Below, one piece after another: positions 32,127 to 34,530 of a DNA stretch of 64,000 nt. Position 1 is the first letter of the stretch, and every line of letters starts with the position of its first letter. Source of the stretch: a virus. Its lineage: Duplodnaviria; Caudoviricetes. The DNA lies in the IMG/VR virus record IMGVR_UViG_3300025073_000989; one strand, 5' to 3'. Position numbers and translations under genes: made by a program. The notes beneath the pieces were generated by a model that was not told the DNA's origin, did no database searches, and saw only the letters and a list, made by a program, of their open reading frames with translations.

Positions 32127-32248
32127 ATATAACGCCTAAATAAGCCGCCGATATGTAGAGCGGTGGCGAAACTACAAGGAGAATTTGAATGAACAAACTT
32201 CGCAACAGAACAGAGCTTCTAGCGGCCGGCTTGATTTTTTTGTTGGGC
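32127..32248 (+). repeat. attC-like site 1
   Basis: ATATAAC...aaataagccg-ccg ... cgg-C-cggcttgattt...GTTGGGC; imperfect palindrome with an extrahelical base. Confidence 0.8.
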
Positions 32249-32467
32249 GTTTCGGCCTTGGCTGGGTGCACAGACGCAAAAATGAAACAGTTTACAGCCC
32301 TTGGGTCGCCAGGAGAGATTGTTTGTTTTTCTGGCGGTAAAGAAATTTACAAGGGAATTTCAACCGGGAAAATATCTACAGAACAAGGGAGTGACGGATG
32401 GTATTTCCAGGAGCAGACCACCGGAAAACTAATCCGTGTTTCTGGCGACTGCCTTATTCGGAACTGA
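32189..32467 (+). CDS. cassette 1: putative lipoprotein
   Basis: Lipobox LAGC after a hydrophobic stretch; RBS and ATG lie inside attC1. Confidence 0.7.
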   Translation: MNKLRNRTELLAAGLIFLLGVSALAGCTDAKMKQFTALGSPGEIVCFSGGKEIYKGISTGKISTEQGSDGWYFQEQTTGKLIRVSGDCLIRN

Positions 32468-32468
32468 C

Positions 32469-32556
32469 GCCCAACGGTATTTTAACCTGCCGCGCCTATG
32501 GCTTGGCAGCAAATGCGACCGCGCTGCTCGCGGTCAGGTTGAAAATTTTGTTATGA
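32469..32556 (+). repeat. attC-like site 2
   Basis: GCCCAAC...ttttaacctg-ccgcg ... cgcgg-T-caggttgaaaa...GTTATGA. Confidence 0.9.
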
Positions 32557-32586
32557 TGCGTAAGTTTTATTCCATTTTTTAAAAAG

Positions 32587-33777
32587 GTGAATTGTATGAA
32601 ACAAGTAATTTCTACGGAACAGAAGCCTATTAAGTTGTGGTTGGATGATATTGAAGACGGGGCGCTTGCCCAAGCCAAGAACCTTGCCAACCTTCCTTTT
32701 ATTTTCAAGCACATTGCTATTATGCCCGACTCGCATCAAGGCTACGGAATGCCTATTGGCGGGGTCATGGCCACACAGGGCGTTGTTGTCCCGAACGCTG
32801 TCGGTGTTGATATCGGATGCGGCATGTGCGCCCTCAAGACTTCCATTGCTACCCTTGACCAAGCAACGCTGAAAAAAATTATGGGCGGCTCGAAGGAATA
32901 TAAAGGCGGCATAAGAAGTGCTGTGCCAGTCGGGTTTTCGCACCATTCTAAAAAACAGGACGAGGGATTGATGCCAAGAATTACAACTGGCTTGCCAATT
33001 GTTGAGAAAGAATACAGTTCCGCCTTGAAGCAGATCGGAACCCTTGGCGGAGGCAACCATTTTATTGAGATACAACAAGGCAATGATGGATTTGTGTGGT
33101 TGATGATCCATTCCGGCAGCCGGAATATAGGGTTTAAAGTGGCGCATCATTATAACGATGTGGCTATTTCTCTGAATGAGCGGTGGCGTTCTGCTGTACC
33201 GGCAAACTGGCAACTGGCGTTTTTGCCTTTGGATAGCGAAGAAGGGCGAAGTTACTTGGCGGAAATGCAATACTGTGTTGATTTTGCGCTTGCCAGCCGG
33301 GGGCTTATGATGGAGTTGGTTAAACGTTCTATTGTTGAGGTGATTGCAGATGTTACTTTTGGCGATATCATAAACATTGCCCATAACTACGCCACTATGG
33401 AGCACCACTTTGGAACAAACGTGATGATTCACCGTAAGGGGGCTACAAAAGCCTACCCTGACCAACTTGGCATTATTCCCGGCAGCCAAGGGACTGCAAG
33501 CTACATCGTTCGGGGTAAGGGTGAACCTGAAAGTTTTATGTCTTGTTCTCATGGTGCCGGTCGCAAGATGGGGCGCAAACAAGCCGAGCGAGAACTTGAC
33601 CTTAATGCCGAGATTGAAAGGCTTGATTCTATGGGCGTTATTCATGCAATCCGATACCAGAAAGATTTAGATGAAGCACCAGGGGCTTATAAAGATATTT
33701 CTACCGTGATGAGTAACCAAACTGATTTAGTTGATATTGCAGTGGAACTAAGGCCACTGGCGGTTATTAAGGGGTAG
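32587..33777 (+). CDS. rtcB: cassette 2: RtcB 3'-phosphate/2',3'-cyclic-phosphate RNA ligase
   Basis: MPDSHQGYGMPIGGV, GVDIGCGM, LGGGNHFIE, HSGSR, HNYA, HRKGA, SCSHGAGR, DEAPGAYK. Confidence 0.98.
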   Translation: MNCMKQVISTEQKPIKLWLDDIEDGALAQAKNLANLPFIFKHIAIMPDSHQGYGMPIGGVMATQGVVVPNAVGVDIGCGMCALKTSIATLDQATLKKIMGGSKEYKGGIRSAVPVGFSHHSKKQDEGLMPRITTGLPIVEKEYSSALKQIGTLGGGNHFIEIQQGNDGFVWLMIHSGSRNIGFKVAHHYNDVAISLNERWRSAVPANWQLAFLPLDSEEGRSYLAEMQYCVDFALASRGLMMELVKRSIVEVIADVTFGDIINIAHNYATMEHHFGTNVMIHRKGATKAYPDQLGIIPGSQGTASYIVRGKGEPESFMSCSHGAGRKMGRKQAERELDLNAEIERLDSMGVIHAIRYQKDLDEAPGAYKDISTVMSNQTDLVDIAVELRPLAVIKG

Positions 33778-33779
33778 CA

Positions 33780-33866
33780 TCATAACGCCAAAATAAGCTG
33801 TGCCGCCTATAGCGGTGCAGCAAAAACACCGGATTTCCCGGCATCAGCTTAATTTTATTGTTATGC
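33780..33866 (+). repeat. attC-like site 3
   Basis: TCATAAC...aaataagctg-tgccg ... cggca-T-cagcttaattt...GTTATGC. Confidence 0.9.
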
Positions 33867-33889
33867 CATTCGTGGCGAGGAATTTCCTA

Positions 33890-34189
33890 ATGGTTAAAAT
33901 GAAAATAATTGACATCGATGGTGGCATCGGCATGGAGTTCCCGAATGGTGTGGACTGCCTCAAGCAACATGGATTCGGGATGTTTCTTGAGTCCTGGGCG
34001 GATGGGGAATTGGTGATTACGCCAGAGGCAAAAAGGGCAATCCTCGAACACGGCAAGGAAATGAGTTTGGGAGGTATCGCGTTTTTCGATCAAAAAATGA
34101 TCGGATTCATGCAGAACGAGATTCCTTTCGATGGCATATCGGTTAACGGGAAATCCAAGGATTGGATTCGGGAGTTACCAGAGGCATAA
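33890..34189 (+). CDS. cassette 3: hypothetical protein
   Basis: ATG at 33890 after GAGG; the stop overlaps the next R'' (GCATAAT). Confidence 0.65.
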   Translation: MVKMKIIDIDGGIGMEFPNGVDCLKQHGFGMFLESWADGELVITPEAKRAILEHGKEMSLGGIAFFDQKMIGFMQNEIPFDGISVNGKSKDWIRELPEA

Positions 34190-34267
34190 TATCGCTGGCG
34201 TAACCAGCCTGTCGCACATGAAAGGAGATTGACACCATGACAACGCCTATTGACGTAATTGTTAGCT
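34184..34267 (+). repeat. attC-like site 4 (degenerate)
   Basis: GCATAAT ... GTTAGCT; weak arms (ggcgt/acgcc, tgtc/gaca); contains the RBS and ATG of the next ORF. Confidence 0.6.
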
Positions 34268-34470
34268 GGGTGCGCTACCAAGCGCGAATGTTTAAGCACC
34301 GACCACGGATGTTGTGGAACCGCGCATTCGTGCGGAAAAATGAGTTTCACAACAGCCTCGATATGGATGTCCGGTCGATGTACGACATGAACACTGAAGA
34401 CCGGCAGCGATACATTGCCGATTTGATACGCCGCAGGAACATTGCACATGAGCGTGACATTGATAGCTAA
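34237..34470 (+). CDS. cassette 4: hypothetical protein
   Basis: RBS AAAGGAG; the stop overlaps R'' AGCTAAC. Confidence 0.65.
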   Translation: MTTPIDVIVSWVRYQARMFKHRPRMLWNRAFVRKNEFHNSLDMDVRSMYDMNTEDRQRYIADLIRRRNIAHERDIDS

Positions 34471-34530
34471 CACAATATGATATGAAATTTAACAGTGTCT
34501 GTATAGCACTAGTTAAGTTTCATATCATAT
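34465..34530 (+). repeat. attC-like site 5 (R' lost)
   Basis: AGCTAAC then a 13-bp perfect inverted repeat atatgatatgaaa/tttcatatcatat; no terminal GTT. Confidence 0.55.

Follow-up and report, generated by a model that had tools for sequence, protein, structure and literature searches.

The sequence analysed here, called the window throughout, comprises 64,000 nucleotides (nt) of a virus of the Caudoviricetes (Duplodnaviria) and is the minus strand of positions 11381-75380 of the 268,764-bp IMG/VR virus record IMGVR_UViG_3300025073_000989. By its size (~269 kb) the virus is a jumbo phage, and its mean GC content is 34%. Directly 3' of its ssb gene lies a block of ~2.3 kb (32133-34470) with 47% GC, compared with 33% and 32% in the 5-kb flanks. 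It is made up of four units with one open reading frame (ORF) each, namely ORF1, rtcB, ORF3 and ORF4. All genes of this stretch are on the plus strand, and a Shine-Dalgarno sequence is present before every ORF of the block; promoter and terminator scans returned counts at background level only. A first-pass annotation, made from the letters alone, had pointed out the GC-richer block and the four single-ORF units directly after ssb, and had read them as an integron-type array with rtcB that the phage acquired as an insertion. Both observations were reproduced, and the reading is borne out by matches to attC models and by relatives without the array.

We consider it very likely that positions 32133-34470 are a cluster of attC sites lacking an integron integrase (CALIN), that is, four cassettes that were once integrated into the phage genome by a host integron integrase (IntI). 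The term CALIN applies to two or more attCs separated by under 4 kb, with no intI gene nearby. Here, three intact attCs lie within 1.74 kb, and there is no PF00589 match in the 268,764-bp record; an integrase had already been noted as missing from the window, and none is present in the whole phage genome either. The locus is not a complete integron (intI, attI and the cassette promoter Pc), as no tyrosine recombinase is encoded in the genome and the array opens at nothing more than a G|TT adjoining a phage hairpin. The array, inserted after ssb of a jumbo phage, carries rtcB and has three attCs predicted to be live and one predicted to be dead.

attC sites and cassette boundaries

The sites were compared with the general structure of attCs: an R'' core (RYYYAAC) and an R' core (GTTRRRY) with invariant AAC/GTT, a length of ~55-140 nt, imperfect inner repeats L''/L', two extrahelical bases on one arm, an unpaired spacer and a variable centre. 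Inspection and folds revealed these cores, inner repeats and extrahelical bases in sites 1-3, which are imperfect palindromes with 7-nt AAC/GTT cores, paired arms, an unpaired spacer and a variable central part. In every good site, two extra bases are separated by 6 bp, and the first of them is 16 nt from the start of the core, a position that it also occupies in attC aadA1; the extra bases are C/A, the canonical pair, in site 2, and T/A and C/G in the other two sites. The first-pass annotation has to be corrected on two points here, since it had counted one extrahelical base per site and had assigned R'' and R' with reversed polarity (the boxes it named R'' are the complements of R', and the models match the minus strand only). 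Site 3 folds with z = -3.7 to -4.9. Site 1 contains the ribosome-binding site, the start codon and the signal-peptide codons of ORF1, and the final six bases of its top strand (32127-32132) are the phage target sequence.

The covariance models used for the searches were home-built and are not IntegronFinder's own. A sequence-only model (R1), which derived from a poor alignment of the five sites, was set aside, and a crude scan for AAC...GTT arm pairing was dropped as evidence, as it gave 14 matches compared with 4-13 in shuffled sequence. Model R2 was derived from eight attCs that are independent of the window, five belonging to a Salmonella plasmid with the class 1 array estX-psp-aadA2-cmlA1-aadA1 and three to gammaproteobacterial arrays of Mangrovitalea and Thiodiazotropha. 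It was run with filters off over the entire 64-kb window on both strands (128 kb). The top match was site 3 (33780-33866, 25.3 bits, E = 0.001), followed by site 2 (32470-32556, 13.6 bits, E = 0.8), both at full length and on the minus strand. The score of site 3 falls within the 20-34 bits of array attCs outside the training set.

Model R3 was built from 27 attCs of bacterial and plasmid loci that had been collected with R2. Its three best matches in the window, both strands being searched, are sites 1, 3 and 2 (Table 1), on the minus strand only. The covariance-model check suggested at first pass thus returned matches with either model. The rest of the 269-kb genome contained no R3 match at E <= 1 with default filters, and the best match in an unfiltered search of three genome pieces reached only E = 0.18. 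Site 1 shares a 19-nt arm with attCs of bacterial arrays, and arms of 19 nt or more are common to window sites and bacterial arrays of integrase-bearing genomes. The bacterial source loci have up to seven co-oriented attCs, and of the five bacterial genomes from which arrays were taken, four encode a full integron integrase above the TIGR02249 cut-off, as against none of 14 control genomes. Sites 1-3 belong to the attC family.

The first-pass annotation had counted five attC-like sites, and the last two did not hold up. Site 4 does not fold (z = 0), the GTT of one of its cores has become ATT, and R3 gives only a fragment match (14.6 bits, E = 0.46). Because the homologous site on the viral contig L110 (L110:623-718) is intact (30.2 bits) and includes the 15 nt that appear as a gap in the window, site 4 is a decayed attC. 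Site 5 has no R3 match. It was rejected as an attC, as it is a single core half (34465-34471) followed by a hairpin of phage-like composition, i.e. the junction on the phage side (G|TT).

Table 1. Features of the array and its surroundings (positions in the window; R3, covariance model described in the text)
Feature	Position	Strand	Remarks
ssb	31728..32123	+	weak Pfam SSB match; phage gene adjoining the insert on its upstream side
attC site 1 (122 nt)	32127..32248	-	top strand GCCCAAC ... GTTATAT; R3 44.9 bits, E = 4e-9
ORF1, small lipoprotein, 92 aa, LAGC lipobox	32189..32467	+	cargo of cassette 32133-32474
attC site 2 (88 nt)	32469..32556	-	top strand TCATAAC ... GTTGGGC; R3 27.3 bits, E = 2e-4
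rtcB RNA ligase	32596..33777	+	cargo of cassette 32475-33785
attC site 3 (87 nt)	33780..33866	-	top strand GCATAAC ... GTTATGA; R3 41.4 bits, E = 4e-8
ORF3, 99 aa	33890..34189	+	cargo of cassette 33786-34189
attC site 4, decayed	34184..34267	-	cores AGCTAAC and ATTATGC; 15 nt of one arm deleted
ORF4, 77 aa	34237..34470	+	cargo of cassette 34190-34470; first codons inside site 4
Right junction, G|TTAGCT on minus strand	34465..34471	-	first cassette meets phage DNA
AT-rich phage hairpin, ~22 bp	34475..34530	both strands	fold z = -6.5; phage-like composition
DUF4357-like phage gene	34572..34997	+	directly follows ssb in relatives

Read along the minus strand, the order is phage G|TTAGCT-ORF4-site 4|TTATGC-ORF3-site 3|TTATGA-rtcB-site 2|TTGGGC-ORF1-site 1-G|TTATAT phage. 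The six opening bases of a cassette are the exact complement of its own attC core at all four junctions (TTAGCT/AGCTAA, TTATGC/GCATAA, TTATGA/TCATAA and TTGGGC/GCCCAA). Neighbouring units are complementary in 6/6 core positions, as compared with 3-6 of 7 within one site. This chained complementarity, which had been noticed at first pass and is complete at every junction, is the footprint of units that were formerly separate circles. The cassette boundaries fall at the core crossovers.

Three viral contigs contain parts of the array in other surroundings. ORF4 and its attC recur in L110 (52% GC) with other neighbours on both sides. The homology starts and stops at the cores, so that ORF4 together with its attC is a discrete mobile unit. 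A homologue of ORF1 is found in L081 between two attCs with the same polarity as in the window. This contig resembles a temperate phage, with an endolysin, a phage-type integrase, an excisionase and a Cro-like gene; its integrase was considered as an integron integrase and rejected, being an ordinary phage-type recombinase. Between rtcB and L001, homologous DNA starts at the ribosome-binding site and is lost after TCATAA|CG, the crossover of site 3.

In one sequencing run, SRR3989314, two contigs of the phage end and begin inside site 2 with an overlap of only 22 nt (window 32524-32545). This break could be due to hairpin-related loss of coverage or to a minor variant.

Insertion after ssb and competing explanations

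A megablast search with the locus had no match among 50,697 phage records, and neither ssb nor the helicase retrieved a relative from viral contigs. Relatives were reached only when the neighbouring 1102-aa RNA polymerase was the query of a full HMMER search (~45% identity). In the relative L111, the polymerase gene is followed by the ssb orthologue (36% identity to the ssb product of the window, E = 1e-28), 30 nt of intergenic sequence, the orthologue of the DUF4357-like gene (L111:11804-12304, 36% identity, E = 3e-23), a 190-aa gene, the helicase and the amidoligase. L113 has the same compact order. In L112 it is kept only as far as the DUF4357 gene, where the contig ends. The comparison of the ssb locus among relatives, proposed with the first annotation, is thus clear in its outcome: the distant relatives L111, L112 and L113 have neither the array nor any attC. 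The GC-rich block is an insertion. L112 has an HNH endonuclease gene at the ssb locus (L112:3856-4765, on the opposite strand) in place of the cassettes, so the intergenic spot next to ssb accepts different mobile elements.

Both ends of the block coincide with the AA|C crossover of a core, at 32132/32133 and 34470/34471. At the right junction, the homology to L110 ends exactly and the GC content falls as well. When the flanks are joined, they read …TTTATATAA|CACAATATG…; on the minus strand this gives G|TT at a distance of 5 nt from the hairpin at 34475-34530. IntI inserts cassettes at genomic GWT sites (Loot et al., bioRxiv 10.1101/2022.09.11.507474). The junction is compatible with such an insertion at a secondary site, as well as with one targeted to a hairpin resembling a folded attC. 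The hairpin has no match to R3. It is probably the ssb terminator, and has possibly attracted the integrase.

From these data we infer the following course of events, in which the involvement of IntI, the way in which the genes are expressed and their functions are conjectural. A host IntI would have integrated the cassettes at the G|TT secondary site 5 nt from the post-ssb hairpin, each cassette, read on the minus strand, ending in its own attC. With three intact attCs, the rtcB and ORF1 cassettes could still be excisable by IntI supplied by a host, and the decay of the attC between ORF3 and ORF4 has fused those two units. As the genes are co-directional with the flanking phage genes and have their own Shine-Dalgarno sequences, they are most likely expressed by read-through of phage transcription.

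Several findings weigh against integration by IntI. The phage genome encodes no integrase, and any contact of IntI with this DNA is presumed. No excision or reshuffling was seen: three look-ups with exact proteins, 24 contigs each, returned a single arrangement each, and the three contigs of the phage that were displayed are 100% identical to the window. These contigs lend no support to the ongoing shuffling of cassettes suggested at first pass. The independent model R2 misses site 1 and gives site 2 only E = 0.8. The R3 scores of sites 1 and 3 are inflated, since the training set of R3 includes attCs retrieved with a 19-mer from these two sites; the R3 score of site 2 and all results of R2 are free of this bias. 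The genes are antisense to their attCs, unlike those of 20 of 21 bacterial control cassettes. Finally, the nearest homologues of rtcB and ORF1 are in phage contigs, mostly without attCs, which makes the cargo unlike a sample of bacterial integron cassettes.

The strongest competing explanation, which we still judge rather unlikely, is that the block was copied as a whole from a phage or bacterium that already had the array, through illegitimate or short-homology recombination, with the attCs as passengers and no action of IntI on this phage. This would suit a genome without integrase, an array that is invariant across the public contigs of the phage, and a cargo of phage type for which phages of ~50% GC with arrays of the same polarity (L081, L110, L018) are possible donors. 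Off-target recombination at GTTRRRY-like motifs has also been suggested as a route by which cassettes enter phages (Qi et al. 2023, Front Microbiol, PMC9892861). However, both ends of the block are exactly at the core crossover AA|C, and it is improbable that random breakpoints would hit it twice. Moreover, the outermost half-cores are phage-like in composition, as site-specific insertion predicts. We therefore favour insertion by IntI.

It is very improbable that the palindromes merely serve the phage as terminators or regulatory hairpins, comparable to the promoter-stem-loop cassettes of T4-type phages, and look like attCs by chance. The palindromes are indeed intergenic, the hairpin at 34475-34530 is an element of this kind, and the crude scan detects ~10 AAC...GTT palindromes per genome, equal to the number in shuffled sequence. 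However, models trained on genuine attCs pick out only sites 1-3 in 269 kb, and these sites have arms of at least 19 nt in common with attCs from bacterial arrays of genomes with an integrase. They are also GC-rich, foreign and absent from the relatives, and their chained core complementarity is typical of cassette arrays. An assembly chimera of bacterial integron DNA and phage reads, as the abrupt change of composition at both ends and the contig break inside site 2 in one run might suggest, can hardly be credited, because identical junctions occur in separate Logan, ENA and JGI samples, partly in contigs of >200 kb, and are spanned by contigs on the left (L094) and on the right (L079 and L095).

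Gene polarity and cargo

For attC aadA1, whose gene stops a single base short of the site, the coding strand has both extra bases in its 5' arm. Sites 1-3 have them in the 3' arm when the plus strand of the window is read. Because of this arm and the model matches on the minus strand only, the attC top strand corresponds to the minus strand of the window. All four genes are therefore on the recombinogenic bottom strand of the attCs, and the plus strand of the window is predicted to be the active strand in recombination by IntI. None of the four units has the canonical structure, in which a promoterless gene on the attC top strand is followed by its attC. Of 21 cassettes in seven control arrays from bacteria and plasmids, 20 had their longest ORF on the top strand.

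Bottom-strand genes were found in six phage records (the window phage, H101, ctTUS972, L018, L001 and L081). In phage H101, whose attCs have been tested experimentally, R3 detects four attCs on the plus strand, opposite to the genes gp133-135 on the minus strand; the sequences that Qi et al. cloned from this phage as bottom strands map to the strand of the genes. The two attCs found by R3 in ctTUS972 are antisense to the genes, and the IMG/VR contigs L018 and L001 also show inverted polarity. Tetrasphaera phage TJE1 is canonical, with its R3 matches on the gene strand. In Jenny 12G5, H188, 3/49 and P12002L, R3 had no match, and these four phages provide no information on polarity. Qi et al. 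(PMC9892861) are silent on the polarity of genes and attCs. An origin of the inverted polarity in a strand or transcription bias of insertion at genomic sites was rejected, as no such bias was seen by Loot et al. (bioRxiv 10.1101/2022.09.11.507474).

The 2,954-nt contig L077, which was binned as part of a Holosporales metagenome-assembled genome, has four attCs in a common orientation, every ORF being on the bottom strand, and one of these sites is nearly identical to site 3 in its arms. L077 may be phage DNA that was binned into a bacterial genome.

These records raise the possibility, which we hold with more doubt than confidence, that phages maintain their own pool of "antisense" integron cassettes. 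The phage-type cargo (rtcB and a phage lipoprotein) fits cassettes that circulate among phages by means of host integrases. If this were true, antisense cassettes would be silent under a bacterial Pc promoter, and the recombinogenic strand would be the non-template strand of phage transcription. Should the reversed polarity prove general, phage cassettes would not simply be borrowed bacterial ones, which bears on the origin of cassettes and on the choice of the strand.

As to the individual genes, the rtcB product matches Pfam RtcB (PF01139) with E = 1.5e-107 and the PHROG family tRNA-splicing ligase with E = 1e-116. In an alignment to the P. horikoshii / Pyrococcus RtcB structures, it keeps the motifs MPDxHQGYG, DIGCG, GNHF, HSGSR, AHN and HGAGR; with the full-length domain and the metal-binding and histidine-nucleophile motifs, it belongs to the RtcB family. 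This RtcB most likely reseals tRNAs or other RNAs that were cut by ribonuclease defences of the host. A role of the locus as a plug-in site for counter-defence genes, as proposed at first pass, is plausible for rtcB; it does not extend beyond this gene, two of the cargo genes being without known function. The closest rtcB (84% protein identity) is that of the viral contig L001, and the gene is frequent in viral contigs, with 59 loci found. At L001:5636-7194, rtcB comes after a gene for an HNH endonuclease, and an attC (30.8 bits), itself a few genes downstream of an ssb, precedes it by 1 kb. In L002 and L037, rtcB comes immediately after a tRNA gene.

ORF1 has ~50 homologues, and the four contexts that were inspected are all phage-like. 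Among 5.8 billion proteins, the sole match of ORF3 is ORF3 itself, and it has no Pfam or PHROG match. ORF4 has one homologue, in L110 (74% identity), which likewise starts inside an attC.

Relation to known arrays

The first-pass annotation was not aware of a description of such arrays as a phage system, but they are on record. In a screen of 10,705 phage genomes, Qi et al. (2023, PMC9892861) detected 17 CALINs, in virulent and temperate phages, and five of six attCs from virulent phages recombined with attI1 under IntI1. Integrase-less cassette arrays of phages have thus been known since 2023, and the array in the window is a further example and not a new system. It shares with these CALINs the array of attCs, the single-gene cassettes, the lack of intI and the location in a phage genome. 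In TJE1 (NC_019930, 1-2200), the array is situated between a terminator hairpin and ssb, as in the window, and the adjoining terminator has inverted GTTRRRY motifs (PMC9892861). H101 and ctTUS972 have the inverted gene/attC polarity of the window. In contrast to the phages of Qi et al., the window phage is a 269-kb jumbo phage, and its cargo is rtcB and a phage lipoprotein rather than DNA methyltransferases. Its insertion point is resolved to the base and one attC has decayed.

Compared with bacterial arrays and CALINs, as defined for IntegronFinder (Cury et al. 2016, PMC4889954), the window shows the same attC architecture, chained cores and compact single-gene units, and likewise has two or more attCs in a span of 4 kb and no integrase. 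The differences are the position of its genes on the bottom strand (4/4, as against the top strand in 20/21 bacterial control cassettes) and a replicon without attI, Pc promoter or integrase. Similar to the insertions at genomic attG sites described by Loot et al. (bioRxiv 10.1101/2022.09.11.507474), a cassette is joined to genomic DNA at the minimal G|WT, here G|TT, and the remaining half of the target is found at the opposite end of the array. That work was done on the chromosomes of E. coli and V. cholerae, whereas the target here is in a phage; it is also 5 nt from a long hairpin, so that a folded pseudo-attC is an alternative target. RtcB and the ligases Rnl1/Rnl2 have been described as RNA-repair ligases of jumbo phages (Iyer et al. 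2021, PMC7824862). The RtcB of the window is likewise encoded by a jumbo phage and presumably reseals RNA cut by the host, but its gene is in an integron cassette of foreign composition instead of the core genome or the vicinity of tRNA genes.

The window therefore provides a clear and well-resolved jumbo-phage case of a rare class, with an empty site in relatives, an insertion point at base level and one attC in decay. Strictly phage genomes appears to be a destination to which genes can be moved by integron recombination, and what is carried there may serve counter-defence such as RNA repair.

The same phage has a second, larger GC-rich island of up to 55% GC (G000 92,900-98,000; L062:8900-14000), with a gene of the YpsA/SLOG family and two unknown genes; no attC and no Rfam match was found in it. 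Upstream of ssb, positions 27862-31170 of the window encode the 1102-aa, single-polypeptide RNA-polymerase-like protein, which has ~100 metagenome relatives at <=45% identity. In these, the gene is in constant order with ssb, helicase and amidoligase, and the protein marks a little-sampled phage lineage.

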